Assembly (NCBI GenBank): GCA_003162415.1 | Contig: PMOL01000011.1 | Span: forward strand, 84,701 to 148,700 | Direction: 5' to 3' | DNA from: Candidatus Dormiibacterota bacterium | Lineage (GTDB): Bacteria > Chloroflexota > Dormibacteria > Aeolococcales > Aeolococcaceae | DNA: 64,000 bases | Shown here: positions 7,300 to 34,174 of the stretch, piece by piece | How the letters are laid out: every line of letters begins with the position of its first letter | Numbering within the stretch: position 1 is the first letter of the stretch | Notes under the pieces: generated by a model | The model's database searches: none | What the model was told of the DNA's origin: nothing | What the model saw: the letters and a program-made list of their open reading frames with translations, nothing else | Made by a program: the position numbers and the translations under genes

Positions 7300-7385
7300 G
7301 GCCCCGATTTGACAGGGCCAAAGTAACCCTAGGATTGCCGATGGACTTGTGTGGGTCGCCTGCGTGAGTAGGTAAGTACGCTTCC

Positions 7386-8339: not shown

Positions 8340-9211
8340 TGGTCACGACCCTTGTTACGCCGAGCAGAGCGCGGACAATCGTACGATTGCTTAGGGTCAC
8401 TGACAAGCGATTCCTCATCGGCAGCGCGATCGTTCTTGTCATGGCAATCGCCTCGTTTGTCATACCCGCCATCTCCCCATACGGGCCCAACGAGATAATC
8501 CCGCAAGATGCCCTGAGCGGACCGACGTTCCAACACCTGCTCGGTAGTGATGATCTAGGACGAGACGTGCTCGTGCGAGTGATGGCAGGCAGCCGCATCT
8601 CGCTCGGCGTCGCGATCGGATCCGGATTTATTGCAGTGCTCTTGGGTGTGCCGCTAGGATTGATAGCTGGATTCTCCAGTGGCGTTGTCGACAACCTAAT
8701 CATGCGTCCGCTCGATGTACTCATGGCCTTTCCTGCAATCCTCTTGGCAGTAGTGATCGTGGCGTTCGCTGGAACCGGTACGACCGTACTCATCATCGCT
8801 ATAGGAGTCGTCTACACACCGGTGATCGCTCGGGTGATGCGAGCTACCACGATGGCGTCGCGGACGCAGACGTATGTTGACGTAGCGCGAGCCCGGGGCG
8901 CATCCACCCTAAGAATCCTAGTTCGACATGTACTACCGAATAGCATCGGGCCGGTGGTTGTTCAGGCCTCCCTACTTATGGGGTTCGCGATCCTCCTCGA
9001 GGCGGCTTTTAGTTTCATTGGGTTGGGGGTGAGGCCCCCCAACCCATCTCTCGGCTCCATGCTTGCTTCTGAGCGAGACTTCCTGGCCGAAGCTCCTTGG
9101 GTCGTCATTGCCCCTGGCGTGGCTGTCATGGTCCTCGTGCTCGGCTTCAACTTTATCGGCGATGGCTTGCGAGACGCTCTGGACCCCCTCGGGCGGGCTC
9201 GAACTCGATGA
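8339..9211 (+). CDS. ABC transporter permease (DppC/OppC-like)
   Basis: BPD_transp_1 permease. The stop/start junction overlaps the previous gene. Confidence 0.85.
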   Translation: MVTTLVTPSRARTIVRLLRVTDKRFLIGSAIVLVMAIASFVIPAISPYGPNEIIPQDALSGPTFQHLLGSDDLGRDVLVRVMAGSRISLGVAIGSGFIAVLLGVPLGLIAGFSSGVVDNLIMRPLDVLMAFPAILLAVVIVAFAGTGTTVLIIAIGVVYTPVIARVMRATTMASRTQTYVDVARARGASTLRILVRHVLPNSIGPVVVQASLLMGFAILLEAAFSFIGLGVRPPNPSLGSMLASERDFLAEAPWVVIAPGVAVMVLVLGFNFIGDGLRDALDPLGRARTR

Positions 9212-10164
9212 CTCCCCTACTTGAAATTCGTTCGCTGTCTGTGGACTACGGCTACGGAGCTGTGATTCGCGACCTGTCGATCACCGTTTCGGCTGGCGAG
9301 ATTGTTGGGCTCGTCGGTGAATCGGGTTGCGGCAAGACAACCCTGGGGTGGTCCGTGCTCGGTCTACTACCTCGGAGCGCGCGAGTCGACGGGAGCATCC
9401 TTTTTGACGGGACGGAGTTGATTGGGTTGCAAGCGCGCAAACGGCGGAAGCTTCTCGGAGTACGTCTCTCCCTAATCCCCCAAGCTGCCATGGCATCGCT
9501 CGACCCGATGTTCACGGTTGGCCATCAGATACGCGAAATCATCTTGACGCATCAACGCGGCGGACGAGCCGGTGCCGACGCAAGGACGGTCGGGCGGCTA
9601 CGGGAGGTGGGGGTAGCTGCACCCGAGGCTCGACTCCGCGCCTTTCCGCATGAGCTCAGCGGCGGCACTCGCCAGCGCGTTGCCACCGCCGCGGCCATGA
9701 TCCTCAACCCCTCCATGCTCATAGCTGATGAACCGACCTCGAGCCTCGATGTAACCATTCAAGCCCAGGTGCTCGGAGTCCTTCGCTCGGTCATACTTGA
9801 GCACGGAACCGCAGTTATGTTCATCACCCATGACCTCGGCGTCGTTGCGCAGATCTCTGATCGCATCGCCGTCATGTACGCGGGCGAAATCGTCGAGGAA
9901 GCAAGCGCCCAGGAGCTGTTCGAGGATCCGAAGCATCCATACACTAAGAAACTTTTGGCGGCACACCCCGGATTCAGCAACAAAGGACAACGACTCGCTA
10001 CTATCCCGGGTTCGGTCCCAGACCCCGCTCAGCGACCCGGCGGGTGTAGTTTTGAACCGCGCTGTCCTGTGGCGATCCCCCTGTGCCAAGAGGACAGGCC
10101 TCCATGGGTGGCTGTCGAATCCGATAGGCACGTTCGCTGTGTCCACTGTGCACCGAACCACTAG
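9208..10164 (+). CDS. ABC transporter ATP-binding protein (DppD/OppD-like)
   Basis: Walker A GESGCGKTT, signature LSGGTRQR, Walker B LIADEPTS and a C-terminal oligopeptide-type extension. The likely start MTPLLEIRSL lies at 9208, inside the longer ORF. Confidence 0.85.
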   Translation: MTPLLEIRSLSVDYGYGAVIRDLSITVSAGEIVGLVGESGCGKTTLGWSVLGLLPRSARVDGSILFDGTELIGLQARKRRKLLGVRLSLIPQAAMASLDPMFTVGHQIREIILTHQRGGRAGADARTVGRLREVGVAAPEARLRAFPHELSGGTRQRVATAAAMILNPSMLIADEPTSSLDVTIQAQVLGVLRSVILEHGTAVMFITHDLGVVAQISDRIAVMYAGEIVEEASAQELFEDPKHPYTKKLLAAHPGFSNKGQRLATIPGSVPDPAQRPGGCSFEPRCPVAIPLCQEDRPPWVAVESDRHVRCVHCAPNH

Positions 10165-11224
10165 CCTCCTCCGCGTTCATGACGTCGCCAAGGATTTCCC
10201 TGTCAGACGTTCCTGGCGGTCGTGGCTGGGCCGCGAACCGACGCAGAAGCTGCGTGCTATCGACGGTGTCTCTTTGCACCTCGACGTAGGCGAGACGTTG
10301 GGACTCGTCGGTGAGTCGGGCTGCGGGAAAACGACCCTCGGCAGAGTCGTCGCAGGACTTACCCAACCAAGCTCAGGAGTCGTCGAATATGCTGGAGAAG
10401 CGACGAACTCACTCAAGGGCAACGCATACCGCACCTTCAGAAAGGAGGTGCAGATCATCTTTCAGGACCCGTTCTCGTCTCTCGACCCGCATCAAACCGT
10501 CGAGAGCGCCATACGTGAGCCTCTCGATATCCAGGGGGTTGGAACGCGCAGGCAACGACAAGCCCGGGTGCTGGAACTGATGGATCAGGTGGCGCTTCCC
10601 GCCCGCTATGCGAAGCGGCTTCCGCACGAACTGAGCGGTGGTCTTCGGCAGAGAGTCGGCATCGCGAGTGCGCTGGGTCTTGCACCCCGACTTATCGTCG
10701 CAGATGAGCCGACATCAGCACTCGATGCTTCTGTCCAGGCCGAAATTCTCAACCTTCTAGGTGACCTCCAACGCAGCCTGGGCATGTCCTACATTCTCAT
10801 ATCACACAATCTGGACGTCGTTCGTTACCTTAGCCACCGCGTTGCCGTCATGTACCTCGGGCGAGTGGTCGAGTTGGGATCGGCAGATGACGTCTTCGCC
10901 TCCCCGAAGCACCCGTATACCCGCGCGCTGATGGCGGCGGTCCCGCGACCTGACGCCAAGACACCTCTTCGTCCTTTGGCAGTTCGCGGAGAGATCCCAT
11001 CACCAACGGAGATCCCGGGGGGATGTCCATTTCACCCACGCTGCTGGATGGCGCAATCTATTTGCGAAACTGAGGCACCGCCGCTCTATGATTTCGGGGA
11101 CTCGCACTCAGCGCGGTGTCACATCACGGCGCAAGAGGCAGGCGTCGTAAGTGCGCCATCGACTGCGTCACCAGCCAGTGTAGCTCGGGCCCATTCGGCA
11201 CCGGCGCAGTCTGGGCCAAGCTGA
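10148..11224 (+). CDS. ABC transporter ATP-binding protein (DppF/OppF-like)
   Basis: Walker A GESGCGKTT, signature LSGGLRQR, Walker B. The probable GTG start at about 10148 overlaps the preceding stop. Confidence 0.85.
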   Translation: MHRTTSLLRVHDVAKDFPVRRSWRSWLGREPTQKLRAIDGVSLHLDVGETLGLVGESGCGKTTLGRVVAGLTQPSSGVVEYAGEATNSLKGNAYRTFRKEVQIIFQDPFSSLDPHQTVESAIREPLDIQGVGTRRQRQARVLELMDQVALPARYAKRLPHELSGGLRQRVGIASALGLAPRLIVADEPTSALDASVQAEILNLLGDLQRSLGMSYILISHNLDVVRYLSHRVAVMYLGRVVELGSADDVFASPKHPYTRALMAAVPRPDAKTPLRPLAVRGEIPSPTEIPGGCPFHPRCWMAQSICETEAPPLYDFGDSHSARCHITAQEAGVVSAPSTASPASVARAHSAPAQSGPS

Positions 11225-11296: not shown

Positions 11297-12604
11297 GTGC
11301 GAAACGCGAAGATAGCAATCTACGGAGGCGGAGGGGCCCCTTACCACCACATCGGAGTCTTCGCACGCGCCGGTCACTCGGTTTCGATCCTCTTTCCATC
11401 AGAGGTAAGGGCAGACATATTGGCCAGCTTCGATGCATTCGTGATTCCCGGCGGCGGGTATGACGGTATGAGAGGCCAGATCGACCCGCTTGGTAAGGAT
11501 GGAGTAGAGGCAATCGCGCAATTCGTCGAAGCGGGTGGAATGTATCTTGGATCGTGCGCTGGTGCTTATGATGCTGCCACACCCGCCGAGGCCTTCCGCC
11601 TCGCGTGCCCCTTGCAGCGGGCCATGACGCTCTCAAACGCAACGGTATGGAATGAGGTCGCGGATCCTTGGTCGGACCTCCAGTCGCCGGGGGTCGGGCG
11701 TCTTCAAGTATTGAACCGGTCCCCCGAGCACCTCATCATGCGTGGAATCCCGTCAGAGTTCGAAATTGTTCATTACAACGGGCCTCTCTTCGAAGGCGCT
11801 GAGTCCTTGTTCTCAATCGGCCACCAAACGGAGGCGTTCACGCCAAGTGAAGGATTCTTTTCGAGCGACTCCGCGATACCGCGCATGATCGACCGAGCTC
11901 GCGAAGGTCGTGTGAGCGGCGGGGTTGTCGAGCGGTTTGGGCGTGGCCGTGCCGTCTTGTTCGGGTCACACCCGGAGTTTGGATTCTCTTTGACCATGGA
12001 TGATGAACAGCTGCCACAGACGATGCTTCTGAATGCCATCGACTGGCAGCTCTTGATTGGACCAGAACCAGTTCCACGATCCGCCACGCTGTGCAGCGAA
12101 ACCGGGTTGGCGCCCACGGATCACGGGGCGATGTTGGAGGCTGCTCTCACAAGTATCCGAGGGCATGTCTCATCACTTCAGCTCAAACCCCTAGATGAGC
12201 AGTGGATTGATGGTCGGTACGCAATGTCAGTGTTTGGCCAGCAACCAAAGGTCATTTGGAGGCAGTCTCTGATGCGAATTACTGAGTTAGCTGAGGAGAT
12301 CGAGCGGCTCGGCCCAGGAGTAAGGTCGAGTACGTTGTCATTCCGGCAACCCGGCGATGGCGTTCTTGACTATGGCTTTCACGGTGTCCTAGCCCTCCTA
12401 CAACAGGTCGACGAGCTGCTTTCGACTGCTGAGGCAACCTGGCATGTGCCGCTAGGCGATTTGTCCGCTGACCCTTACAAATACATCCGGTCGAGTCCTT
12501 ACCATCTCGTGGCTGGTTCATATCTAGCTGCGATAGGTCGCGCCACCGCCGCTGCGATACTCTGCCGCTACGACGCCTGCGACGTCAACCGACCGCTCAC
12601 ATAG
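11297..12604 (+). CDS. BPL-N / class-I glutamine-amidotransferase-like domain protein, function unknown
   Basis: The N-terminus (KIAIYGGGGAPY...FDAFVIPGGGYDGMRG) resembles the biotin-protein-ligase N-terminal, GATase-like fold. It is the last gene of the importer operon. Confidence 0.4.
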   Translation: MRNAKIAIYGGGGAPYHHIGVFARAGHSVSILFPSEVRADILASFDAFVIPGGGYDGMRGQIDPLGKDGVEAIAQFVEAGGMYLGSCAGAYDAATPAEAFRLACPLQRAMTLSNATVWNEVADPWSDLQSPGVGRLQVLNRSPEHLIMRGIPSEFEIVHYNGPLFEGAESLFSIGHQTEAFTPSEGFFSSDSAIPRMIDRAREGRVSGGVVERFGRGRAVLFGSHPEFGFSLTMDDEQLPQTMLLNAIDWQLLIGPEPVPRSATLCSETGLAPTDHGAMLEAALTSIRGHVSSLQLKPLDEQWIDGRYAMSVFGQQPKVIWRQSLMRITELAEEIERLGPGVRSSTLSFRQPGDGVLDYGFHGVLALLQQVDELLSTAEATWHVPLGDLSADPYKYIRSSPYHLVAGSYLAAIGRATAAAILCRYDACDVNRPLT

Positions 12605-12726: not shown

Positions 12727-14097
12727 CTATGGTCTCGGGAAGGGCAGTAGGGAGACAAGGCGCCGAACGTCCGCTGACTCGTCGAGGCTAAGAACCTCTT
12801 CCGCGATGGCCTCATGACGTTGCTCGGGAACTCTCAGTGCCGCGAGGGCATGGTACTTTTCGACAATCTCCGACGGCGCGAGCGGAAGTGCGGGTGTGCC
12901 CCGTGCATCTCTCCGAGATTCCGACCAGCTTGCGCCCCGTCGGGTAATCACCGTTACCTCGCTCGCATAGTGCTGCGGGAATGTGGTGTCGAGTCGGGCA
13001 TCGTGCACCACATTCGTCCGTCGAGCGAGGCGTTCGACTTCCGGCACCTCGCCTTTGTCGAAGATCACGTCGTCGAAGTCAACGGCACCCATGACCGTGG
13101 CTAGCGGAAGAATGTATTGAGCCCGGTGCGATCGGAGAATGTTTCCATCGATCACTGGCGCTCCTGTCGCTGGGAAGCGCAGCTCGATGGCGTGGACGTC
13201 CGCCGAGGTCAAGCCGTGATCGGACATGATAGTCAGCAAGGCGTCAATGCCAGGATGGAGAAATGCGCAGCACGCGTAGCGCTTGATCGTCAACTCCTCG
13301 ATGCTGCGACAGCCGAGAATGTCGCCTTCGAGCAGTTCGAGGTTTCCCCTCCCATTCAGCGACCATGCGGTGAAAGCGTTGTACCGGCTGTCCACGTCGA
13401 ACGTGTCGACTGAAGCGCCAAGGCCATTGGCCGCTAGTAGTCCGGCAGTAATGCCGTTGCGGGCCGCGAGCCCCGCCGTAAAAGGGCGCGACTGTTCCGA
13501 TGGTTCTTGAGTCCATGTCAGCAAGCCCGCGGCCTGGGTTGCAGCTAGTCCGAGTGTCCTGGTGGTCGCCTCAGCATCAAGATGCAGAAGCCGGGCCACC
13601 GCCACCGCCGCTCCGAAACACCCTCCAATCGCAGTCGGGTGGAAGCCCCTGGCGTAAAGGTCATTGGGCCCTATGGCGAGGCTAGTGCGGCAGGCCATCT
13701 CGACGCCCAGAGCTACGGCGTCGATCATCTCAGCGCCAGTTGTCGAGGTCATTGGCGAAATAGCGATTACCGCCGGGACGACCGCAGCCGCAGCGTGCAC
13801 GACAGACGGACCGTGATGGCTCTCGATATCCATCGCGTAAGCGAGGTAACCGTTGACCAAGGCTGCCGTTACGCCATCCGTCCACTCCTCATAGCCAACC
13901 ACGGGCGACGGTCCAGCCCCCCCTTGAGCCTCGATGAATCGCTTCAGGACCTGCGAGCCTGGGAGAGCCGGCCGACTGGCAGCGAGCATCGCGCCCAGGG
14001 TATCGAGAAGTATGAGTTTGGTCTGTTGTTGACCGGACGCCGTCAGGTGGGGATCACCCCCGGACAGGAGCGCTCCAAGGTCGCTGGTGAGGCCCAT
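12727..14097 (-). CDS. MmgE/PrpD family protein (2-methylcitrate dehydratase-like)
   Basis: MmgE/PrpD-like all-helical fold (HHGPSVVHAAAAVVPAVIAIS...). The ORF extends to 14427, but its N-terminal 110 aa is Arg-rich and overlaps the upstream gene. The start is taken as MGLTSDL at 14097. Confidence 0.7.
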   Translation of the reverse strand: MGLTSDLGALLSGGDPHLTASGQQQTKLILLDTLGAMLAASRPALPGSQVLKRFIEAQGGAGPSPVVGYEEWTDGVTAALVNGYLAYAMDIESHHGPSVVHAAAAVVPAVIAISPMTSTTGAEMIDAVALGVEMACRTSLAIGPNDLYARGFHPTAIGGCFGAAVAVARLLHLDAEATTRTLGLAATQAAGLLTWTQEPSEQSRPFTAGLAARNGITAGLLAANGLGASVDTFDVDSRYNAFTAWSLNGRGNLELLEGDILGCRSIEELTIKRYACCAFLHPGIDALLTIMSDHGLTSADVHAIELRFPATGAPVIDGNILRSHRAQYILPLATVMGAVDFDDVIFDKGEVPEVERLARRTNVVHDARLDTTFPQHYASEVTVITRRGASWSESRRDARGTPALPLAPSEIVEKYHALAALRVPEQRHEAIAEEVLSLDESADVRRLVSLLPFPRP

Positions 14098-14102: not shown

Positions 14103-15230
14103 TCAGAACACCGTGGTCTCCGTTCCGACCGATCCATGGGCGGAAGAGAACCGATCGAGCCGCAGGCCGGAGACGTCGAAATCCACGGTAGCACTGCCTG
14201 TGATCAATCCAGCGACAACCTCGCCGGCTGCTGGCGCGTGCATGAAACCGTGCCCGGAGAAGCCTGCGGCGCACCAGACGCCATCCACGCTTGGCACCGG
14301 ACCGAGAAGCGGCATGTCGTCTGGCGTCATCTCTCTGAGCCCGCACCACGCGTTTACCGCGCGAGCCTGTTTCAGAGCTGGAATGCGATGCGTCATCGCT
14401 TCGGCAATGGTCGCCAGGCGATCCCACTCGACGACGGCGTCGTAGCTCGCACCACGATCTCGGTCGCCGCCGCCCAGAAGGACATCATTCGCTTCGGCAT
14501 GGACATAGGTACCTGATCGGACGTCCACGAGAAACGGGAGGTCCCTAGTACCGTCAACCGGTGTGAGCACGAAGACCTGACGAGGATGTGGCTCAATCGG
14601 GAATTCCCAAGCCAACGCTTGATTGAAGCGTGAGGTCCACGCCCCGGTCGCAACGACGAGCTGGTTGCAGTCGATGCGTCCCATGGGCGTGCTCACCCCA
14701 GATATCCGTGAGTTTTCAACGTGCACGTCGGTTACGGCGCAACCCTCTCGAATGTCGACCCCGAGCCGACGGGCGGCGTTCGCGAAGGCCATGGCAGCAT
14801 CCACCGGCGAACCCACGCCATCCAGCGGGCAATATGTTGCTGCAACGAGCCCTTCAACATTGATCGTCGGGTATCGACTATGCAAGTGGGTTGGCGTGAC
14901 AAGCTCAGTCGGAACGCCGAGCGAGTTCTGCATAGCGACACTCTGTTGGAGCGACTCCATTACGGCTTCATCGTCGACGAGAAAGACATACCCGACGCGG
15001 TTGAACGGCACAGGGTAGCCGAGCCGATCCTCGATCGTCGAGTAGAAATCTATCGAACGCTTCGACAGTTGGACGTGGATCCTCTGTGAAAACTGATGCC
15101 GCAGGCCACCGGTGGCCTTTGCGGTAGTCCCGGACGCGATGGACTCTCGCTCGAGTACGACGATGCGTCCGGTTCCGAGACTCGCGAGGTGATATGCGAT
15201 GCTCAGTCCGATGATGCCTGCGCCGATCAC
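14103..15230 (-). CDS. FAD-dependent oxidoreductase (DAO family; sarcosine/opine/D-amino-acid oxidase-like)
   Basis: N-terminal dinucleotide fold (V)IGAGIIGLSIAYHLA and a DAO-type architecture. A GTG start about 9 nt upstream is possible, giving ...DVVVIGAG. Confidence 0.8.
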   Translation of the reverse strand: MIGAGIIGLSIAYHLASLGTGRIVVLERESIASGTTAKATGGLRHQFSQRIHVQLSKRSIDFYSTIEDRLGYPVPFNRVGYVFLVDDEAVMESLQQSVAMQNSLGVPTELVTPTHLHSRYPTINVEGLVAATYCPLDGVGSPVDAAMAFANAARRLGVDIREGCAVTDVHVENSRISGVSTPMGRIDCNQLVVATGAWTSRFNQALAWEFPIEPHPRQVFVLTPVDGTRDLPFLVDVRSGTYVHAEANDVLLGGGDRDRGASYDAVVEWDRLATIAEAMTHRIPALKQARAVNAWCGLREMTPDDMPLLGPVPSVDGVWCAAGFSGHGFMHAPAAGEVVAGLITGSATVDFDVSGLRLDRFSSAHGSVGTETTVF

Positions 15231-15578
15231 GACGACGTCCGCGCCTTCGTGGTGATTAGTCAGGTATGCGCCCTCCGATACCCACGCCGATCACCTTAGC
15301 CCCGATCGTGTCGACTTGAAACGGGGCTGCTGCGCTGACGCGGGATCTGCGCTTGTCATGCAGCGGGACCCCTGGCATAGAGAGCGCGAGATCGCATCAT
15401 CCACAGGCACTAGCGCCGATGTGGCAACTCGCACTACTAGCCCGGCCGGCTCAGCAGGGTCGGATCCGACGCTCCGTTGTGTCTGGGCATCGGTTAGCCC
15501 ACACTCCGATCGGCCATTCAGCTTAGTATACTGTCGTCTGTAGACTGCGGCTAGGGTCCTTGATGATGAAACAAATGT

Positions 15579-16742
15579 TTGCTAACGTCGAACACCGTGC
15601 CGAGGGTGACTTGGGAGCGCGCGTTTTGGTTTCAAGTGTGTTGGTTCAGCCCGACGGGCGAGGGCCCCATAGCCCGCCAGGGAATCGGACCAACGCCAGC
15701 AGAAGATTTGGAGTGCGCGCTCGCCAGCGCGGGAAGAGAACGACGAGTGACCTCGATTGATGACCTTGTAACGTCGGTGAAGCCTGGGACGTCAGATTGG
15801 AGTCTATGGAGGCCGCTCGAGGAGAATGCCGATTCCGAGGTGCCGATCGCTGTTTTGGTCGGAGAGAATCCGGGCCCTACGCTGTGGCTCCAGGGCGCTC
15901 TTCATGGCAACGAGTTCGATGCCGCCGTTGCCACGCAAGCTGCTCTCAGAGAGATTCGATTGGGAGATCTTCGCGGCACGGTGATCGGTTTACCAGTCGT
16001 CAATGGGATCAGCCACCGCGCAGGAACAAGGGTTCTTCCCGGCGATGGCAAGGATCCGAATCGCCAGTTTCCCGGCGACCCCCATGGGACCGACAGTGAG
16101 CGGCTTGCATTCGCACTCAGTTCCGGGCTAGCCAACCACGCAACGTATTTCGTAGACGTTCACTCGTCGACGGAGACATTCCTTGGTATCGACCACACAA
16201 TCTACTTGGTGGCGGACGATCCGACTGCGACACTCTCCAGGCAAATGGCGCAGGCGTCAGGCACCGCGGTGATGTGGGAAAGTACAGGTGGCTGGCTTCA
16301 AGGCTCCTCATATATTTGGGCGGCCAACCGCGGTATCCCCAGCATCCTGCTGGATGTAGGTGAAATCGGAGAGTCCAGTCAGGTGGCGCATGCAGCGTCC
16401 GGTTTGCTTGGAGTTCTGAGAGCGCTCGAGATGCTGCCACGTGATTCCGTGGCTAGTCAGCGCGAGTTCCTCACCGTCCGCGATCCTGAGTGGATACGGG
16501 CTCAAGCACCAGGTCTCCTGACACACTCGGTGGGTATCGGGGCCGAGGTGCACGAGGGCACCACACTCTTCCGGGTACTGGATCTCGACGGCCAAGAGCT
16601 TCAAACGGCGTCCTGTCCGTTCAACGACGGCGTTGTCGTCACCATTCGGCGCCCGCATCAGGCTCACGTAGATGAGGACGTTGTGTCGATTGGGCGACGC
16701 GTGAGATCGTCGACATCGGACTTTCCTGCCATCAGCCGCTAG
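15579..16742 (+). CDS. succinylglutamate desuccinylase/aspartoacylase (AstE/AspA, M14-like) family deacylase; DoeB-like
   Basis: Contains motifs of this zinc deacylase family (LWLQGALHGNEFDA, NRQFPG). The real start is probably downstream of 15579. Confidence 0.7.
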   Translation: MLTSNTVPRVTWERAFWFQVCWFSPTGEGPIARQGIGPTPAEDLECALASAGRERRVTSIDDLVTSVKPGTSDWSLWRPLEENADSEVPIAVLVGENPGPTLWLQGALHGNEFDAAVATQAALREIRLGDLRGTVIGLPVVNGISHRAGTRVLPGDGKDPNRQFPGDPHGTDSERLAFALSSGLANHATYFVDVHSSTETFLGIDHTIYLVADDPTATLSRQMAQASGTAVMWESTGGWLQGSSYIWAANRGIPSILLDVGEIGESSQVAHAASGLLGVLRALEMLPRDSVASQREFLTVRDPEWIRAQAPGLLTHSVGIGAEVHEGTTLFRVLDLDGQELQTASCPFNDGVVVTIRRPHQAHVDEDVVSIGRRVRSSTSDFPAISR

Positions 16743-16759
16743 ATGTTCGATAGCCCCCC

Positions 16760-17941
16760 TTGAATGCCGACCTCACTGCCCGACTGAGCTCGATAGCCGA
16801 GACCATGCAACGGCTCGGGTGGGCGGCACTAGTCGTCACTTCCCCCGAGGCCGTGCAGTACTTCAGCGGTGCTTTGATCCACACGCAAGCACTCATTCGC
16901 CGTCGCCAGGCAGCGGTCGTGATTACTCAGGACTCCAAGGCCGTGCTAATAGTGGCGGCTATTGAGCGGGCACTGGCAGCACGCATGAGTTTGCTTGAGT
17001 CGCTCGAGACGTATGACGAGTTCGAGTCCTCGGTGTGCGCGGCGGCCGGGGCCATATTGCGGTTGCGGATGGATGCTCACGCCACCGTTGCCGTCGAAAA
17101 GACGCACCTACCAGCACTCGACTTCGAATGTCTCGCTTCACTCCTCCCGCTCGCAACTTTCGTGGCCGGCGACAACATCCTCGCCGAGATGCGCATCGCA
17201 AAAACGGCGGATGAGCTCGATGCCGTTGCCTTTGTTGCCTCCGTGATGGATGCTGCAATCGGCGCTGCCGTCGGTCGGGCTAGAGCAGGGTCGACGGAGA
17301 TCGCCCTGGCCAACGACATCACCTGTACTGCCCTGCAACTCGGGGGCGGCCGGATACGCGGTGCCACCGGGCTGGTGGCTGCCGGACCTAACCTGCGAGT
17401 CTCACATCATGTCGCTGGATCTTCGCCGATCAATCCGGGTGACGTACTTCGTGTGGGCTGTCGCGCCACGTGCGATGGTTATCATGGGCTGGTTGCGCGC
17501 ACTGCGGCAGTTGGGGAGCCGTCCCCTCCCGTCGCACGACGGTATGCCGCACTAGTCGAGGCGCATCGAGACCTTCGCGCCTCGCTCGATGTCGGGGTTA
17601 GTGCAGGTGACGTCTACACTCGAGCATCGCACAGACGACGTTCACTCGGCCTAACGCTCGAGACATCTCATGTAGGTCACGGAATCGGATTGGAGTTTCA
17701 GGAACCACCCAGGCTACGAAAGGGCTCGACAGACACTCTGATGCAGGATTCAACCTTGATGGCGGTGAGTGTTCTGAACGATCCTGATGTTGGCCATCTC
17801 TATATCGAGGACATGGTGGCCATTCGTCCGGGCGGCAGCGTTCTCCTGACCAGTGCGACCCCAACCGACTCCATCCTGAATGTGTTAATGGCCACTCACC
17901 CCACTCCAGCCGCTGGTGCGACCGGGTCTTCGGCGCGTTAG
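16760..17941 (+). CDS. M24 family metallohydrolase (creatinase/prolidase fold; ectoine-hydrolase DoeA-like)
   Basis: Creatinase_N-like N-terminus plus a pita-bread M24 domain (HHVAGSS...D...HGIGLEFQE...IEDMVAI). It lies 18 nt downstream of the deacylase. Confidence 0.75.
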   Translation: MNADLTARLSSIAETMQRLGWAALVVTSPEAVQYFSGALIHTQALIRRRQAAVVITQDSKAVLIVAAIERALAARMSLLESLETYDEFESSVCAAAGAILRLRMDAHATVAVEKTHLPALDFECLASLLPLATFVAGDNILAEMRIAKTADELDAVAFVASVMDAAIGAAVGRARAGSTEIALANDITCTALQLGGGRIRGATGLVAAGPNLRVSHHVAGSSPINPGDVLRVGCRATCDGYHGLVARTAAVGEPSPPVARRYAALVEAHRDLRASLDVGVSAGDVYTRASHRRRSLGLTLETSHVGHGIGLEFQEPPRLRKGSTDTLMQDSTLMAVSVLNDPDVGHLYIEDMVAIRPGGSVLLTSATPTDSILNVLMATHPTPAAGATGSSAR

Positions 17942-17990: not shown

Positions 17991-19595
17991 TTGTCGAATC
18001 CTACGGTTTCCGAGGCGCTTGGACAGGAACTACAGTCCGTAGGCGTCGATCGTGTCTTCGGCCTTCCGGGTGGCGAGGTTTTGGACCTTATTGATGCCCT
18101 GCGCCGATGCGACATCGAGTTCGCACTCTGTCGCCACGAGGCGAATGCAGGAATCATCGCCGCTGTCTATGGAAAACTCAAGAGAACGGTAGGAGTCGTG
18201 CTGACCACACTAGGGCCCGGCGCCTCGAACTTGATGCTTCCGATAGCAAGCAGTCTGCTGGATCGCGAACCGCTGCTCGCTATTGCTGCGCAGGTTCCTA
18301 CGAGCTGGCCCGCTGAGCGCACACATCAGCGACTGCCGCTTGTTGAGTCCTTCCGTCCTTTGACAAAACTTTCAGGGTCACTCCACGCGCTCAACTGTCG
18401 GAGCCTCCTCCGCACCGCCGTCGCCGCGGCAACATCGGAACCACAAGGCCCGGCGTTCCTGACGTTATCTTCGGACGACGCCCGTTCGGTGGCTCAGGAA
18501 GCTGATCCCGGAGTTCGGCCCGCTCTCCTCAATCCCGTTACCCTGCGGCCAGCCGGCGAAGTGGCCGACGAGTTGACCCGCATCATTGGGGAGGCGCAGC
18601 ACCCGCTCATCATCGTTGGCCTCGGGACACGGGCCGAGGTAAGCGAGCCACTACGCCGATGGATTGATGAGTGGCGACTACCGGTTGTTGTCACCCCAAA
18701 GGTTAAGGGCATCATCGATGAACGCTCGCCGCACTTCATCGGCGTTGTGAGCGGGATGGCGATCGATGCGCTGATGGTTGAGGCAATCAGGGAAAGCGAC
18801 TGCGTGGTTGGCTTTGGCCTGGACCCCGTGGAGATTGATGGCTCGTGGCACATGGAGGTTCCGATGACCTGGGTTCTCGAGTCTCCTTGGGCCACTGGCT
18901 TGGCACCGAGGACCGGGCTTTTAGCGGTTGATCATGATCAGCTGCTGGCAGCTATGGCGAAGACACCTCCGAGACATTGGGACTCGGTGTTCGAACACGC
19001 ACGTGCGCGCCGGCAGATCTTTCTCGAGGACACGCCAACGCTCGATCCACATCCAACGCCGACCTCTCTTGTGAGGACTCTGATGAGTGCCGTTCCAGCC
19101 GAGACGATCGTGGTCACTGATGTCGGGTCCCACAAATGCCTCTTCGGTCAATTCTGGGAGAGTCGCTTTCCGGAGACGTTCTTCATGTCCAACGGTCTCT
19201 CCGGAATGGGCTATGGACTCTCGGCGGCCATCGGCGCCAGTCTTGCTCGTCCCGAGGCTCCCGTCCTCACCATCCTCGGTGACGGTGGCTTTTCGATGAA
19301 CAGCCAAGAGCTCGAGACTGCCAAACGCCTTGGTGCACACTTCGTCACCGTTGTTGTCGCTGACCAGTCGTATTCCTTGATTCGTCATTCTCAACGGTCC
19401 AGAGGTCTAGACCGGTATGGCGTCGACTTCGCTCCGATCGACAGCGTCGCAACCGCTGCGGCCTGTGGAATTCGCGCGATTCGCGTCGAAGGGCTCGATA
19501 TGCTCGCAAGGCCAGTCGGCGAGGCTATTCGCGGCGGCGAGTCGCTGCTCGTTGAGGTGCCACTCGACCCAGACAGCTACCGCGGAATACTGTAG
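17991..19595 (+). CDS. thiamine-pyrophosphate-dependent enzyme (acetolactate synthase large-subunit-like)
   Basis: TPP_enzyme N, M and C domains with the GDGGF TPP-binding motif. Confidence 0.8.
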   Translation: MSNPTVSEALGQELQSVGVDRVFGLPGGEVLDLIDALRRCDIEFALCRHEANAGIIAAVYGKLKRTVGVVLTTLGPGASNLMLPIASSLLDREPLLAIAAQVPTSWPAERTHQRLPLVESFRPLTKLSGSLHALNCRSLLRTAVAAATSEPQGPAFLTLSSDDARSVAQEADPGVRPALLNPVTLRPAGEVADELTRIIGEAQHPLIIVGLGTRAEVSEPLRRWIDEWRLPVVVTPKVKGIIDERSPHFIGVVSGMAIDALMVEAIRESDCVVGFGLDPVEIDGSWHMEVPMTWVLESPWATGLAPRTGLLAVDHDQLLAAMAKTPPRHWDSVFEHARARRQIFLEDTPTLDPHPTPTSLVRTLMSAVPAETIVVTDVGSHKCLFGQFWESRFPETFFMSNGLSGMGYGLSAAIGASLARPEAPVLTILGDGGFSMNSQELETAKRLGAHFVTVVVADQSYSLIRHSQRSRGLDRYGVDFAPIDSVATAAACGIRAIRVEGLDMLARPVGEAIRGGESLLVEVPLDPDSYRGIL

Positions 19596-19622: not shown

Positions 19623-20156
19623 ATGAGCGTGATTGACAAGAAGGTGGCGATCCTCGTGGAGGATCTGTATGAAGACTTAGAGCTGTGGTATCCGTACTAC
19701 CGATTGCGGGAGGAGGGTGCCGAGGTCCATCTGGTCGGGAGCGGCAGACTCCCGACCCACACCAGCAGGTACGGGTATCCTGCGACGCCAGATCTCGTCA
19801 TCGACGACGTCCGAGCGGCTGATTTCGCTGCCGTCGTCATCCCCGGTGGTTACTCTCCCGATCTCATGCGTCGCAAGCCACCGATGGTGGACTTCGTTCG
19901 AGAGATGGATCGCGCCGGTAAGCCCGTGGCCGCGATTTGTCATGCAGGTTGGATGCTGGTTTCGGCTGATATCGTGCGTGGTCGTCGCGCCACCTGTTTT
20001 TTCTCAATCAAGGACGATCTGGTTGCGGCGGGCGCTGAGTATGTCGACGAGCCTGCGGTAGTCGATGGCAATCTCGTGACGTCCCGGTTTCCGGCCGATT
20101 TGCCGGACTTCTGCAAGGCGCTTGTTAGGCTCTTGGCCGCCCCTGTTCAGGTGTAA
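19623..20156 (+). CDS. DJ-1/PfpI family protein
   Basis: Class-I GATase-like fold with the nucleophile elbow AICHAGWML. Confidence 0.8.
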   Translation: MSVIDKKVAILVEDLYEDLELWYPYYRLREEGAEVHLVGSGRLPTHTSRYGYPATPDLVIDDVRAADFAAVVIPGGYSPDLMRRKPPMVDFVREMDRAGKPVAAICHAGWMLVSADIVRGRRATCFFSIKDDLVAAGAEYVDEPAVVDGNLVTSRFPADLPDFCKALVRLLAAPVQV

Positions 20157-20222
20157 ATGTGGCAGGAAGCAGCAACATCTCGGGAGGCCGGCAGCGAGCC
20201 AGCGTTTCGTAGGAGGAGTAAC

Positions 20223-21011
20223 GTGCCCGACACCCGTACTATCGATCTCAACGCAGATCTCGGTGAGAGCTTTGGCGCATATACACTAGGGTCCGATCCT
20301 CTAGTCATCAAGCTCATCAGCTCGGCTAACGTTGCCTGCGCGGCGCACGCTGGTGATCCGCGCACCATGGACGACACAGTGCAGATGAGTCGGGAGTGTG
20401 GGGTCGCGGTCGGTGCGCATCCGGGCTTTCCAGATTTGGTTGGGTTCGGCCGACGCGCCCTCGACGTCACGCCACGCGAAGTTGAGACTGACGTCGTATT
20501 TCAAATCGGTGCCTTAGATGGCTTCTGCCGGCGACACGGCGTTACGCTGCAGCACGTCAAGGCGCACGGGGCTCTATATAACGTCTCTCTCGTGGATCCA
20601 GCTACAGCCCACGCGATAGCGTCGGCGGTAGCCAGCTACAACAAGACACTGATCTTCGTGGCTCCATTCGGTTCGTGCCTGGCTCAGGCCGGTACTGACG
20701 CAGGGCTCGAGGTGGCATTTGAAGGATTCGCTGACAGGGCATATGCGGCCAATGGCACCCTGGCGTCACGGCGCCTCCCCGGGGCGGTTATTCACGATCC
20801 CGCACTCGCAGCGGCACGCGCGCTCCAAATGATACGGGAGCACACCGTTGAGACGATTGAGGGCGAGACGATGCCCATCAAGGTGCACACGGTCTGTGTA
20901 CACGGCGACAACCCCCGAGCAGTGGACATCCTGACGGAGCTCCGATCTACATTGAGTAGGAACAACATTCAGGTCGCTCCAATGCGCGCGGTGCTCACCG
21001 CAGATCAGTGA
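20223..21011 (+). CDS. pxpA: 5-oxoprolinase subunit A (LamB/YcsF family)
   Basis: DLNADLGESFG N-terminal motif of LamB/YcsF. GTG start at 20223. Confidence 0.85.
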   Translation: MPDTRTIDLNADLGESFGAYTLGSDPLVIKLISSANVACAAHAGDPRTMDDTVQMSRECGVAVGAHPGFPDLVGFGRRALDVTPREVETDVVFQIGALDGFCRRHGVTLQHVKAHGALYNVSLVDPATAHAIASAVASYNKTLIFVAPFGSCLAQAGTDAGLEVAFEGFADRAYAANGTLASRRLPGAVIHDPALAAARALQMIREHTVETIEGETMPIKVHTVCVHGDNPRAVDILTELRSTLSRNNIQVAPMRAVLTADQ

Positions 21012-21727
21012 TACGCGAGATCGTCGCGGCGGGCGAATGCGGTGCATACATACGATTTGGCACCGTGATCGATCCCGACACGAGCGCACTGGTCCAGGCC
21101 TTCGCCGCCCTGCTGCGCGACCTTCGTCGCGCCGAGATCACTGATGTAGTTCCAGGGTATGTCTCGCTCTACGTTGAGTTCGATGTCCAACGAATGACTA
21201 TTGCCGACCTCCAGCGGATCGTAGAAGAGATCACACCGCCGAAAGTAGAGAGCGCCTACTCCGGAGATCTAATCGACATCCCTGTGTGTTACGGCGACTC
21301 CTGCGGTCCCGACCTCACGCAGGTAGCCGCAGAGTGTGCCATGTCTGAAGCCGATGTCATTGACATTCACTCCTCTCGCGAGTACCTAGTGTTCTTCTTG
21401 GGCTTCACACCCGGGTTCCCTTTCATGGGGACAGTCGACGAGCGAATCGCCGTTCCGCGACTGACGGCGCCGAGGACAAAGGTGCCAGCAGGATCAGTCG
21501 GCATTGCTGGTTATCAGACGGGCGTGTATCCAGTTGATAGCCCCGGTGGATGGCGACTCATCGGAAGAACTACGGAGCCCTTGGTGGATCTGTCCGGATC
21601 CGAGCCTCGGTTCCTCCTGAGCCCGCGGTGCCGAGTTCGCTTTCTTCCTACGAACCCGGGGCACTTGCAGCACGCCACGTCCAACATCTCTCGTGGGCTC
21701 GGTAGTCGTGCACACCGCACTCGGTGA
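21008..21727 (+). CDS. pxpB: 5-oxoprolinase subunit B (KipI/allophanate hydrolase subunit 1-like)
   Basis: CT_C_D-type carboxyltransferase fold. GTG start overlapping the pxpA stop. Confidence 0.8.
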   Translation: MIREIVAAGECGAYIRFGTVIDPDTSALVQAFAALLRDLRRAEITDVVPGYVSLYVEFDVQRMTIADLQRIVEEITPPKVESAYSGDLIDIPVCYGDSCGPDLTQVAAECAMSEADVIDIHSSREYLVFFLGFTPGFPFMGTVDERIAVPRLTAPRTKVPAGSVGIAGYQTGVYPVDSPGGWRLIGRTTEPLVDLSGSEPRFLLSPRCRVRFLPTNPGHLQHATSNISRGLGSRAHRTR

Positions 21728-22667
21728 TGGCATTAGGGTCCTTCGGTCTGGCCCACGAACGACGGTTCAGGATTCTGGTCGGCACGGATACCAGCATCTG
21801 GGGTTCGGTGTATCGGGATCGATCGATGAGCGCTGTGCGATGCTCGCGAATCATCTGGTAGGGAATGACACGCGATCGGCAGTGTTGGAGGCAACACTGC
21901 AGGGTCCACGCCTCCAGTTCACAGCACCGGCACAGGTAAGCGTCGTGGGGTGTGGCCCTGAAGTCAGGTTGAATGGTGTCCAGGAGCGTCCGAACGAAAC
22001 CTTCAGTGTCAAGGCAGGAGACGTCGTCGACATAGGCCGGACCGGAGGTGCCCGTGCCTATATGGCGATAAGCGGCGGGATCAAGACTGCGCCGGTTCTG
22101 AATTCTCGGTCTACGGATCTTGTCGGCGGAGTCGGCGGTTACGCTGGACGATCCTTGAAGAAGGGCGATGAACTACGCGTCACCGTTCGCGACTCAGTGG
22201 CTCCACGTGGCATCCGCCCAGCATGGATGCCTGAGAGGTCCTCATCCGTCGAAGCGCGCTGCGTTCTTGGCCCAGAGGCCGGCATGTTTCCCGATTCCGC
22301 GATGCGCCTACTACTCAGCGCTTCTTTCGTCGTCAATCAAGCGTCAGACGGCATGGGCTTGCGACTTGATGGACCTTTGATTGCTTTTTCTCAGCAGATT
22401 CTTTCGGAGGGCCAGGCAGCTGGGTCAATTCAGGTTCCACCAGGTGGTCAACCCATCGTCTTGCTGGCTGGACGCCAAACAATGGGCGGGTACGCCAAGA
22501 TCGCTGTCGTCGGGCGCCCTGACCTCTCGAAGCTTGCTCAAGCCCTTCCTGGGGATGCGATCACATTCGGTCTCCTTTCGCTACAGGACTCGATACGCCT
22601 GACGCGGCAGTGGCTGGATGACCTAGCTGATCCAGCTTCTTCGACCATCGTCCTTGACCGTCGGTAA
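21693..22667 (+). CDS. pxpC: 5-oxoprolinase subunit C (KipA/allophanate hydrolase subunit 2-like)
   Basis: N-terminal ...VLRSGPRTTVQDSGRHGYQHLGFGVSG typical of PxpC. The operon order is A-B-C. Confidence 0.8.
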   Translation: MGSVVVHTALGDGIRVLRSGPRTTVQDSGRHGYQHLGFGVSGSIDERCAMLANHLVGNDTRSAVLEATLQGPRLQFTAPAQVSVVGCGPEVRLNGVQERPNETFSVKAGDVVDIGRTGGARAYMAISGGIKTAPVLNSRSTDLVGGVGGYAGRSLKKGDELRVTVRDSVAPRGIRPAWMPERSSSVEARCVLGPEAGMFPDSAMRLLLSASFVVNQASDGMGLRLDGPLIAFSQQILSEGQAAGSIQVPPGGQPIVLLAGRQTMGGYAKIAVVGRPDLSKLAQALPGDAITFGLLSLQDSIRLTRQWLDDLADPASSTIVLDRR

Positions 22668-22857
22668 ACTTCTCACGTCGTCGGTTACACGGCTCTGACA
22701 TCCTGACCAATCACGTCAGCGTTCGGCGGTTCGAATCAACGAGTGTCTCGGCCAGCCCTGTTGGCCGTTGGCATCGGATGATGCCAAATTAGGCGACCTT
22801 GCGCCCTTAGGCCTCGATCTGGACGCATTGGCCGAATGCATCGGTCGGCCCCGACGC

Positions 22858-23610
22858 TCAGCGCCGGAAGATGCGCTGCAGCACGACGATCGACACTTCG
22901 TAGAGCAGCAGCAGCGGGATTGCGAGCAGCGTCGGTGTGAACGGATCAGCACCGGGCGTGATCACCAGGGACACGATGATGATCCCGACGTATGCGACCT
23001 TCCGCCAGCCCTTGAGCTTTTTCGAGGAGACAAACCCGAGCAGCCCGAGCAGCACGATCACGACGGGCATCTCGAACGTGGCTCCGAAGATGAACACGAT
23101 GATCAGGAAGAACCCGATATACGAGTTGATGTCGGGGAAATAGACGGCGTGCCCGTTGAGGAAGTTGGTCAGGAAGCTGAGCCCGATCGGCATCACGAAG
23201 TAGGCAAACGCGGCTCCAGCGGCGAAGAGCAGGAGTGCGCTGGCGATGAACGGCCCGACGAACTTCCGCTCTTTCGGACGCAATCCCGGCGACACGAAGT
23301 TCCAGACCTGCCAGAGCACCACGGGCAGGGCGATGATCAGCCCGACGACGGCCGCGACCTTCAAGGGGACCGTGAGGCCCTCGGTGGGGCTGGTATAGAT
23401 CGCCTCGTTGTTGGGAATGATGCTGTGCGAGTTCTTCAGGACGGTCGACAACGGGTGCAGAAGCACACCGATGAAGAACCCGTTGAAGACGAACGCGACG
23501 ACCGTTCCGACGATCCAGGCCCCCATCACCCAGATGAGGACGCGTCGCAATTCCTCCAGGTGCTGGACGATCGTCATCCGCCGTTCGTCGTCGCCAGGCA
23601 CTCCCTGCAC
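22858..23610 (-). CDS. tatC: twin-arginine translocase subunit TatC
   Basis: Six-TM TatC with a conserved N-terminus (VQHLEELRRVLIW). The start may be the internal Met at 23577. Confidence 0.9.
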   Translation of the reverse strand: MQGVPGDDERRMTIVQHLEELRRVLIWVMGAWIVGTVVAFVFNGFFIGVLLHPLSTVLKNSHSIIPNNEAIYTSPTEGLTVPLKVAAVVGLIIALPVVLWQVWNFVSPGLRPKERKFVGPFIASALLLFAAGAAFAYFVMPIGLSFLTNFLNGHAVYFPDINSYIGFFLIIVFIFGATFEMPVVIVLLGLLGFVSSKKLKGWRKVAYVGIIIVSLVITPGADPFTPTLLAIPLLLLYEVSIVVLQRIFRR

Positions 23611-23648
23611 CTTACGTGCCCCCGGTCAGCGCGCGCCTGAGCGGCGCG

Positions 23649-24484: not shown

Positions 24485-25444
24485 ATGCTCACCTATCTAT
24501 CAGCCGCTGCCGTCCGAGATTGTCTACCCAGTGTCAGTACTCAGGTCGAGCTCGCGCAGACGGCACTTCGGGCTCTTGCGACGAACCAGGCGGAGATGCC
24601 ACCCAAGGTAGCTGTCCATCCCCGCGACAGCGCACTACTGGAGGCCATGCCGGCCTGGTGGCGCAACGGCGATGTCGCGGGGTTGAAGTGGATTTCAGCC
24701 TTCCCGAGTAATCGCATCCATCAGCAACCCCAGGTGATGGGGCTCATCGTCCTCAATGACGCGACCACCGGAGCGCCGGTCTGCATCCTCGATGCGGTGG
24801 AAATCACCCTCGCTCGTACCGCGGCCATCAGCGCGCTAGCCCTCCGCCTCTACCGAGACTCTCCCCACGCCGTGGCCATCCTCGGCGCCGGAGCCCAAGC
24901 TCGCGCGCACATTTCGATCGCCGTAGCACTTGGATTTGTGCACGACCTGCGCGTCTTCGACCGCCACAAGGAACGGGCGGACGAGCTCGTGAGTTGGTCG
25001 CAATCCCTCGCCCCATCCACGCTACCCGGCCGCGCGTGCGCCTCCGCTCAGGACGCGGTCGAGGGAGCGTCGGTCATCATCTCGTGCGCCTCACTCGGCA
25101 CCAAGCGACATCTCCTGCAATCAGAATGGGTCGACGCCGCTCGCCTCGTCCTCGCGATCGATGAGGATGTCTATGTCTCCGGCGATATCGTGCGTGCCAG
25201 CGACGCCTTCATCGTCGACGACATCAACCAGTTCCGCTCCGCACGCGACCAAGGCGATTTCGCTGGCTTCCCCGATCCAGATGGAATACTCGGCGGATAT
25301 CTGTCACCAGAGGTGTCGACAGTGGCTCCCGCCGGTCGCCTCGTCGTCATCACCCTTGGCGTCGGGATTGCGGACATCATCTTCGCCGCGGCCGTCTACC
25401 AAAGCGCGCGCGACGCCGGCATTGGCCTCCTCCTAGAACCCTGA
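24485..25444 (+). CDS. ornithine cyclodeaminase / mu-crystallin family protein
   Basis: OCD_Mu_crystall fold with a Rossmann-type AILGAGAQA motif. Confidence 0.8.
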   Translation: MLTYLSAAAVRDCLPSVSTQVELAQTALRALATNQAEMPPKVAVHPRDSALLEAMPAWWRNGDVAGLKWISAFPSNRIHQQPQVMGLIVLNDATTGAPVCILDAVEITLARTAAISALALRLYRDSPHAVAILGAGAQARAHISIAVALGFVHDLRVFDRHKERADELVSWSQSLAPSTLPGRACASAQDAVEGASVIISCASLGTKRHLLQSEWVDAARLVLAIDEDVYVSGDIVRASDAFIVDDINQFRSARDQGDFAGFPDPDGILGGYLSPEVSTVAPAGRLVVITLGVGIADIIFAAAVYQSARDAGIGLLLEP

Positions 25445-25448
25445 GCGG

Positions 25449-29225: not shown

Positions 29226-29243
29226 CGCCGCGGGCAGTATGCG

Positions 29244-31582: not shown

Positions 31583-31593
31583 GATCCGACTGC

Positions 31594-33290: not shown

Positions 33291-33314
33291 CGCGGTGCTG
33301 ATTGTGGTCTCGCG

Positions 33315-34160: not shown

Positions 34161-34174
34161 ACGGAGGCTTGCGA

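Follow-up and report, generated by a model that had tools for sequence, protein, structure and literature searches.

The window analyzed here is a stretch of 64,000 nucleotides (64 kb) from contig PMOL01000011.1 of a Candidatus Dormiibacterota bacterium, and the subject of this study is a pair of adjacent genes in it that encode a zinc-dependent deacylase and an M24 protein of the creatinase fold. We propose, with a probability of about 0.5, that the two proteins form a sequential hydrolase-deacylase module, which would work like the EutD/EutE (DoeA/DoeB) pair of ectoine breakdown but would come from other branches of both families. The proposal draws on the replacement of three of the five metal ligands throughout the clade of the M24 protein, on the structural kinship of the deacylase with EutE, and on the linkage of orthologues of both proteins in other genomes. 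The two genes are as follows.

15747 to 16742, plus strand: zinc-dependent deacylase of the AstE/AspA (M14-like) superfamily, EutE/3cdx subgroup (PF24827)
16760 to 17941, plus strand: creatinase/prolidase-fold M24B protein with a degenerate metal site (PF01321 and PF00557)

A sequence-only reading of this DNA had assigned the proteins to these same two families, and Pfam bears this out: the open reading frame (ORF) 15579-16742 matches PF24827 (AstE_AspA_cat) at 67.9 bits against a cut-off of 25, and ORF 16760-17941 matches PF01321 (Creatinase_N) at 51.7 bits and PF00557 (Peptidase_M24) at 104 bits.

The M24 protein and its metal site

M24 peptidases depend on a dinuclear metal center. In the alignment, the columns of its canonical ligands, D-D-H-E-E, are occupied in the window protein by G233, L244, H307, V338, and E350. 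The same G-L-H-V-E pattern is found in 11 other members of the clade, with P0013 having G-I-H-A-E, and the loss of three ligands is kept in the window protein, P0002, P0003, and P0005-P0014. Because three of the five ligands are lost, the dinuclear center cannot assemble, and the protein is therefore not a dinuclear peptidase. The residues that are invariant across the clade, H216, H217, R231, G233, C234, R235, H304, H307, E312, E315, and E350, together with an N-domain loop, H41-T-Q-x-L-x-R-R-R49 (HTQxLxRRRQ), gather at the former metal site and in that loop. The side chains of R231 and R235 should face into the old metal site, since these residues lie two positions on either side of the former first Asp in a β-strand. 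Creatinase, in which the carboxylate of the substrate is bound by an N-domain Arg of the other subunit, and DoeA are precedents for metal-free catalysis in the M24 fold and, as in creatinase, metal-independent chemistry is plausible for the window protein.

The loss of three catalytic ligands would also be expected if the M24 protein were a dead pseudo-enzyme, acting as a substrate-binding, scaffolding, or regulatory partner and leaving the deacylase as the sole hydrolase of the pair; non-enzymatic M24 proteins, such as Spt16 and Ebp1, do exist. We consider this highly improbable, in view of the polar and charged residues that are invariant at the old active site (H216, H217, R231, R235, H304, H307, E312, E315, and E350) and of the precedent that creatinase and DoeA provide in the same fold. 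Also, in one of the genomic layouts described below (layout B), translational coupling joins the M24 gene to a transporter gene, not to that of the deacylase.

No curated NCBIfam family is reached by the M24 protein (PepQ_Arch, 67 bits against a cut-off of 630; the ectoine models DoeA, TIGR02993, and DoeA_2, NF038259, 20.3 against 613 and 53.9 against 575 bits). In a phmmer search of the Protein Data Bank (PDB), prolidases are the best matches (5cdl, from D. radiodurans, E = 3e-22) and creatinase (1chm) appears at E = 8.5e-4 (21.8 bits), whereas DoeA was not found at E ≤ 1e-3. The AlphaFold 2 model (pLDDT 93.3) has Foldseek TM-scores of about 0.8 with prolidases, creatinase, and DoeA alike (0.80-0.82 with 6twj, 6twk, and 6yo9; 0.83 with creatinase), Spt16 being also among the matches; the identities are 27-28% with prolidases, 19-20% with creatinase, and 17-18% with DoeA.

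In a neighbor-joining tree that included one DoeA sequence (from locus L011) and no creatinase, the window clade (99% bootstrap) is placed among M24B proteins of the prolidase-like kind, the majority of which retain a metal site; its sister (79%) is a clade with the ligand pattern E-G-H-E-K, and DoeA, with E-P-Y-M-T, lies on a separate long branch. A profile search of 1.84 billion representatives gave six at ≥369 bits and a next score of 273 bits, corresponding to a clade of about 6-10, and in the wider family that begins at 273 bits, which shares the N-domain insertion, D-D-H-E-E is kept in 122 of 147 proteins. Because of this drop in score and the retention of the ligands outside it, the clade can be regarded as a rare offshoot of prolidase-like proteins that lacks the metal site. 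Its ligand loss is probably independent of that in creatinase and in DoeA, in the latter case because the replacement patterns differ. In the sister E-G-H-E-K clade, an Aminobacter plasmid carries the M24 gene between enolase-like and amidohydrolase genes, an arrangement that gives no functional lead.

The resemblance to the creatinase and sarcosine oxidase system extends to the combination of Creatinase_N with a pita-bread fold and to a SoxB-related flavin oxidase gene nearby. However, the similarity in sequence to creatinase is low, the cluster has no urea-handling gene, and creatinase has no deacylase partner. Xaa-Pro dipeptidases and prolidases (5cdl; PepE, 4ege) are the closest solved relatives, and this fact, together with the retention of the metal site by most of the wider family, favors an explanation in terms of modified-peptide catabolism. 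A small γ-glutamyl, isoaspartyl, pyroglutamyl, D-amino-acid, or N-acyl dipeptide would be imported; the M14-like "deacylase" would be a carboxypeptidase or amidase, as are MpaA and CphZ; the M24 protein would cleave or bind an Xaa-Pro-like dipeptide; a flavoenzyme of the DAO family encoded beside the pair would oxidize released proline or a D-amino acid; and PxpABC, encoded downstream, would clear 5-oxoproline. We judge this explanation to be unlikely: both Asp ligands and one Glu have become Gly, Leu, and Val across the clade, which has an invariant Arg/His set and RRR loop of its own, unlike the prolidases, and we know of no M24 peptidase that works without a dinuclear center.

The deacylase, its linkage to the M24 protein, and the ectoine pair

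The sole NCBIfam match of the deacylase is DoeB (TIGR02994), at 73.2 bits against a cut-off of 402.7, and its identity to Leisingera DoeB is 25%. An assignment to AstE sensu stricto was rejected, there being no NCBIfam AstE match at E ≤ 0.01, 18% identity to E. coli AstE, TM-scores of 0.55-0.62, and no astABCD genes in the window. The best match is 3cdx, an R. sphaeroides structural-genomics target (E = 1e-24, TM-score 0.80), and EutE (6twm; TM-score 0.79, root mean square deviation 2.2 Å) is the only characterized enzyme among the best structural matches of the AlphaFold 2 model (pLDDT 90). CphZ (0.71-0.75) and MpaA (0.46) are among the structural matches, as a role in peptide breakdown would have it, but EutE, a deacetylase, is nearer than either; ASPA scores 0.53-0.55. 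Placement in a tree, which the sequence-only reading had named as a check on its ectoine-type assignment, goes against it for the M24 protein, which stands apart from DoeA among prolidase-like M24B proteins; the deacylase, by its sequence and structure comparisons, falls outside AstE proper.

The zinc ligands H53, E56, and H139, a set identical to that of EutE, and the carboxylate motif N105/R106 are intact. All eight M24-linked deacylases have Asp203 in place of the general-base Glu of EutE (after the "T-T-E-L-G" strand), a residue that DoeB, E. coli AstE, and 9 of 10 other aligned relatives keep. The eight M24-linked deacylases form a clade with 100% bootstrap; within the EutE/3cdx subgroup, the branching order of DoeB has 2% support. 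The window locus is like those of the 3cdx type in having a GntR regulator, a family-5 ATP-binding cassette (ABC) importer, and a second hydrolase, and unlike them in that the partner of 3cdx is an M81 protein accompanied by MR/MLE enzymes, not an M24 protein, and that 3cdx keeps the general-base Glu. The 3cdx-type locus L017 (Cereibacter sphaeroides pRSPH01, 6917-10648) comprises, in order, GntR, family-5 ABC, MR/MLE, deacylase, M81, and MR/MLE genes. Because this locus pairs its deacylase with M81, pairing with a second hydrolase seems to be common in the deacylase subgroup. The M81, MR/MLE, and Dpp ABC genes beside this homologue, as well as the M19, M20, and MR/MLE genes that occur near layout B loci, are points in favor of peptide catabolism.

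Orthologues of both proteins are linked in 7 of 7 independent loci whose contigs are long enough for linkage to be assessed, with identities of 44-53% for the M24 proteins and, relative to the window protein, 37-49% for the deacylases. The linked genes occur in three layouts (A to C), and a fourth (D) has the M24 gene without that of the deacylase. The thiamine diphosphate enzyme is abbreviated ThDP.

Layout A (window, L001, L002, L007): deacylase, M24, ThDP enzyme, PfpI, PxpABC
Layout B (L003, L004, L008, L015): (GntR), family-5 ABC, amidohydrolase, deacylase, family-8 binding protein/ATPase/fused permease, M24
Layout C (L005): deacylase, ThDP enzyme, DAO ... D-Glu cyclase, HyuB, HyuA ... M24
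Layout D (L006 and a Sphingopyxis macrogoltabida plasmid): NTF2, M24, PrpD, no deacylase

Layout B also takes in L014 (deacylase end only) and the truncated contigs L019-L021. Three arrangements keep the same two lineages together, which makes a strong case that they are functionally coupled and that their adjacency is not due to chance. In L005, the ThDP and DAO enzymes recur with the pair: a ThDP homologue with 35% identity lies beside the deacylase gene, and a DAO homologue with 37% identity adjoins these two genes. A D-glutamate cyclase and the hydantoinase/oxoprolinase HyuA/HyuB are encoded in this locus (3607-8542) where the window has PxpABC, which looks like a non-orthologous replacement, and the presence of HyuA/HyuB in this place suggests that the route includes the opening of a lactam. 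In layout D, at 1-2967 of L006 and 13543-16560 of L010 (the plasmid of Sphingopyxis macrogoltabida 203N), the M24 proteins have 42-47% identity and the ligand patterns A-Q-H-T-V or G-I-Y-E-V; this Sphingopyxis strain is the only cultured carrier of the M24 clade that was found.

EutD and EutE are reported to act as a bimodule that is recognized by the juxtaposition of their genes and, in a 2020 dataset, they were confined to Proteobacteria (PMC8739950); for bacteria other than Proteobacteria, putative ectoine clusters of a non-canonical type have been put forward (PMC13188858). EutD/DoeA (ectoine hydrolase, EC 3.5.4.44) with EutE/DoeB (N-acetyl-L-2,4-diaminobutyrate deacetylase, EC 3.5.1.125) is functionally the closest system to the window pair, with which it shares the two folds, the juxtaposed genes, and an M24 member without a dinuclear site. 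To this extent the description of the pair as DoeA/DoeB-like in the sequence-only reading holds, but orthology does not, all scores lying 5- to 30-fold below the cut-offs. Descent of the M24 protein from the DoeA/EutD lineage was rejected on its bit scores, its separate tree branch, and its ligand pattern, and the corresponding assignment of the deacylase to DoeB/EutE on its bit score, its 25% identity, and Asp203. The same reading had called the deacylase-first order non-canonical and noted that doeC and doeD are missing. Both observations are correct: doeA precedes doeB in the reference locus (Leisingera L011: MocR, doeA, doeB, aminotransferase), the reverse of the window order, and neither doeC nor doeD is present in the 64-kb window. 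Genes for aminotransferases (such as that for DABA), for aldehyde dehydrogenases (such as that for aspartate semialdehyde), for regulators of the MocR/EnuR type, and for transporters of the TRAP, Ehu, Ueh, Tea, or BCCT type or any other ectoine transporter are likewise missing from it. The ornithine cyclodeaminase (OCD) family gene said to lie 6.5 kb away is real (24485-25444; PF02423, 138.9 bits), but it is not the EutC-like gene that it was taken for. It scores 62 against 472 bits with EutC, its best match, an SbnB-family model, is also below cut-off, and it lies outside the conserved cluster, past an opposite-strand tatC gene and past the synteny with L001 and L007.

A true but highly divergent ectoine or hydroxyectoine pair, from a Gram-positive-like lineage in which the DAO and ThDP enzymes replace the later steps, would explain why DoeB is the only NCBIfam match of the deacylase and EutE its closest characterized structure, why the M24 protein, like DoeA, has no dinuclear site, and why the genes have the juxtaposition that is the recognized hallmark of the ectoine pair; the putative clusters outside Proteobacteria would be in keeping with it. 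Nevertheless, it is very unlikely, since the three ectoine models are missed by wide margins (73 against 403 bits for DoeB, 20 against 613 for DoeA, and 54 against 575 for DoeA_2), phmmer finds prolidases at 1e-22 and no DoeA, DoeA forms its own branch with another ligand pattern, the regulator, enzymes, and transporters listed above are missing from the window, and the pair is accompanied by importers of peptide or Fbp/Pot type. Ectoine or hydroxyectoine, which the sequence-only reading put first, is thus probably not the substrate, the models having failed and the context being missing, whereas its second suggestion, a different cyclic amidine or N-acyl amino acid, agrees with what was found. 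The pair is set apart from EutD/EutE because the sequence-membership tests fail for both families and because active site, context, transporter, and phylum (Dormibacterota as opposed to Proteobacteria) differ; probably it resembles DoeA/DoeB in logic and not in ancestry and acts on a substrate other than ectoine. A literature search for Dormibacterota and ectoine returned nothing useful.

Gene boundaries and the surrounding island

An ORF scan of the window places both ORFs of the pair on the plus strand, at 15579-16742 and 16760-17941, with a spacer of 17 nucleotides (16743-16759); the close adjacency claimed earlier, then given as 18 bp, is confirmed, and the linkage is kept in other genomes. 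The pair was also thought to begin at 15579, but the most likely start of the deacylase (331 residues) is GTG 15747, about 168 nucleotides downstream of TTG 15579. Relatives with 95 and 88% identity have 331 and 337 residues, and in L001, a locus with 87% identity, the gene call for the deacylase begins at the codon homologous to GTG 15747. When aligned to L001, 15579-15746 contains frame-breaking indels of 1 nucleotide, because of which it is regarded as not conserved as coding sequence, and it is probably a non-coding 5′ leader. For the M24 protein, the long form with a TTG start fits both the Pfam match of the N-domain, from residue 8 onward, and a relative of 395 residues (P0002). A public gene call for the same protein (P0001, 332 residues) begins 61 codons late, losing the first 61 residues of Creatinase_N, and a second (P0133) has 378 residues; the 393-residue form agrees with the Pfam domain and the homologues. 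The dN/dS values relative to L001, 0.13 for the deacylase and 0.20 for the M24 protein, indicate purifying selection on both genes and speak against their being pseudogenes. That the two genes are co-transcribed and co-inherited as a hydrolase-deacylase module is a conclusion to which we give even odds. Upstream of the pair is the following candidate element.

15522 to 15548, no strand assigned: candidate operator, a 27-nucleotide block, CTTAGTATACTGTCGTCTGTAGACTGC, with two palindromes, in the divergent DAO/deacylase promoter region (recognized by identity to L001)

This block is identical to L001 at 27 of 27 nucleotides, whereas the intergenic region overall is 86% identical; its palindromes are AGTATACT and GTCT..AGAC, and it is a possible operator for the GntR/FCD regulator listed below. 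No riboswitch was detected in the 516-nucleotide leader with Rfam, which was run on the whole window and matched only two tRNAs, and promoter and terminator scans gave results at chance level.

The pair sits in a catabolic island of ~18 kb, which is proposed to be inducible. The limits of the island were set by synteny with L001, L002, and L007, that with L001 and L007 ending after pxpC. The closest named relative of the locus is L007, from a Candidatus Dormiibacterota metagenome-assembled genome of palsa soil, with 77-96% protein identity over the shared genes. The other genes of the island are as follows.

4815 to 5744, plus strand: GntR/FCD-family transcription regulator, the probable island regulator (PF00392 and PF07729)
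5725 to 11224, plus strand: Dpp/Opp-type ABC importer, consisting of a family-5 binding protein with a Tat signal, two permeases, and two ATPases (Pfam)
11297 to 12604, plus strand: protein of 435 residues with a class-I glutamine-amidotransferase-like N-terminal domain (PF09825 BPL_N, residues 47-95 only)
12727 to 14094, minus strand: MmgE/PrpD-family protein of ~455 residues (PF03972 and PF19305; the mechanical ORF extends to 14427)
14103 to 15230, minus strand: FAD-dependent amine oxidase/dehydrogenase of the DAO family, divergent from the pair (PF01266, 244 bits)
17991 to 19595, plus strand: ThDP enzyme, acetolactate-synthase-like (PF02776/PF00205/PF02775)
19623 to 20156, plus strand: DJ-1/PfpI-family protein (PF01965, 176.7 bits; TIGR01382, 172.7 bits against 139)
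20157 to 22667, plus strand: PxpA, PxpB, and PxpC, an ATP-dependent 5-oxoprolinase-type lactamase (NCBIfam)

An orthologue of the regulator (66% identity) is encoded directly upstream of the orthologous deacylase in L014. The importer genes are syntenic in L001 and L002 with 84-94% identity, and the best PDB relatives of the binding protein are 5u4o, GsiB/YliB (glutathione), and AgaA (agropinic acid). The 435-residue protein has a syntenic orthologue in L001 (84% identity), weak PDB matches of the PdxT type, and no NCBIfam family. The best PDB relatives of the PrpD protein are IRG1/cis-aconitate decarboxylase and iminodisuccinate epimerase, and its family recurs beside the M24 clade in L003, L006, and L010. 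The DAO enzyme is most similar to the β-subunit of P. horikoshii L-proline dehydrogenase (1y56_B, E = 3.6e-63), followed by dimethylglycine dehydrogenase and the sarcosine oxidase β-subunit; these nearest solved relatives act on secondary or tertiary amines. The PDB relatives of the ThDP enzyme are acetolactate synthases and carboxyethylarginine synthase. PxpA (NF003814, 345.9 bits against 226) and PxpB (TIGR00370, 184.9 against 145.6) exceed their cut-offs; PxpC reaches its domain model (TIGR00724, 268 against 230) but misses the equivalog (197 against 500), and therefore the lactam substrate could differ from 5-oxoproline. No NCBIfam model is above cut-off for the ThDP enzyme, the PrpD protein, the glutamine-amidotransferase-like protein, the binding protein, or the regulator, and their PDB relatives name no substrate.

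Several of these genes bear on peptide catabolism. The Dpp/Opp type of the importer, the identity of GsiB and AgaA as the best named relatives of its binding protein, and the L-proline dehydrogenase subunit as the best relative of the DAO enzyme are in accord with it, but it is not obvious what the ThDP enzyme and the PrpD protein would do in the breakdown of peptides.

Beyond the island, the tatC gene (22858-23610, minus strand) is almost wholly overlapped by a plus-strand ORF of 290 residues (22768-23640), which is of low complexity, rich in Asp, Glu, His, and Arg, and most likely spurious. A second nitrogen-compound island, at 24485-37753, contains the OCD/SbnB-like gene, a Dpp-type ABC system on the minus strand, and an isochorismatase-family hydrolase, as well as a 367-residue protein without a family, an AsnC regulator, an EamA exporter, an M20 peptidase, and an amidohydrolase. 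A defense and mobile stretch follows at 39239-53910, with type I restriction-modification genes (hsdR/M/S), an SRA-HNH nuclease, and a TIR-domain protein, as well as a phage capsid gene, two integrases, and a pair of tRNAs (53389-53479, minus strand; 53825-53910, plus strand). Past ~48 kb, the GC content rises from ~0.60 to 0.65-0.71.

Proposed route and its significance

In the route that we envisage for the hydrolase-deacylase module, the Dpp-type ABC system would import an anionic, nitrogen-rich small molecule, in which the M24 protein would hydrolyze a non-peptide C-N bond of an amidine, guanidine, or cyclic amide without a metal, using the invariant Arg and His residues R231/R235, H216/H217, H242, and H304/H307 and the HTQxLxRRRQ loop. 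The product would be an N-acylated amino acid, from which the zinc-dependent deacylase of the EutE subgroup would remove the acyl group. The freed amino or imino acid would then be oxidized by the divergently encoded flavoenzyme, which resembles proline dehydrogenase and sarcosine oxidase; the resulting 2-oxo acid would pass to the ThDP enzyme, and a lactam of the pyroglutamate type would be opened by PxpABC. What the analysis establishes is the gene structure, the family and subgroup assignments, the ligand loss, the purifying selection, and the kept linkage; the order of the steps, their chemistry, and the class of substrate are inferred. A polycarboxylate or glutamate-derived substrate, at which the Arg-rich pocket, the PrpD partner, and the GsiB and AgaA relatives hint, is a matter of speculation. 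Creatine/sarcosine, opine-lactam (agropinic-acid-like), N-acetylglutaminylglutamine amide (NAGGN), glutathione-like, and murein-peptide substrates were considered, and we put forward none of them, since each fits some of the genes and none fits all.

It should be recognized that a number of observations weigh against this proposal. The M24 protein is nearer by sequence to Xaa-Pro dipeptidases than to creatinase or DoeA, and the retention of H307 and E350 leaves room for a mononuclear metal site. The predicted orientation of R231 and R235 rests on strand periodicity rather than on coordinates, and the replacement of the general-base Glu by Asp could alter or weaken catalysis by the deacylase. 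The layout D branch of the M24 clade (L006 and Sphingopyxis) dispenses with the deacylase and is accompanied by PrpD and NTF2 proteins. The peptide-type importer and the occurrence of related deacylases in peptide-like clusters (M81, MR/MLE) make peptide chemistry a serious alternative. Finally, no member of either clade has an assigned substrate, product, or activity. The searchable literature gave no description of a cluster that combines creatinase-like, AstE-like, and PrpD genes; its coverage being incomplete, this is weak evidence.

A further and more tentative conclusion, to which we assign somewhat less than an even chance, is that the M24 proteins of this clade represent a third independent metal-free lineage of the family, after creatinase and ectoine hydrolase, with an Asp-variant EutE-like deacylase as obligatory partner, and that, in Dormibacterota and further uncultured bacteria of soil, the two proteins together serve a catabolic route not described before, with a soil N-heterocycle, amidine, or N-acyl solute as its substrate. 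Only a few M24 enzymes are metal-free, and each has defined a piece of nitrogen metabolism, that of creatine in the case of creatinase and of ectoine in the case of DoeA. The pair is rare, conserved, and uncharacterized, one of many orphan catabolic clusters, and has no bearing on a long-standing question. It does serve as a warning that pairs of M24 and AstE-family genes should not be annotated as ectoine catabolism from family membership alone. To our knowledge, there is almost no experimentally grounded physiology for Dormibacterota and, if the proposal is true, the pair would add to it a new enzyme activity and a new pathway for a metabolite of soil or peat.

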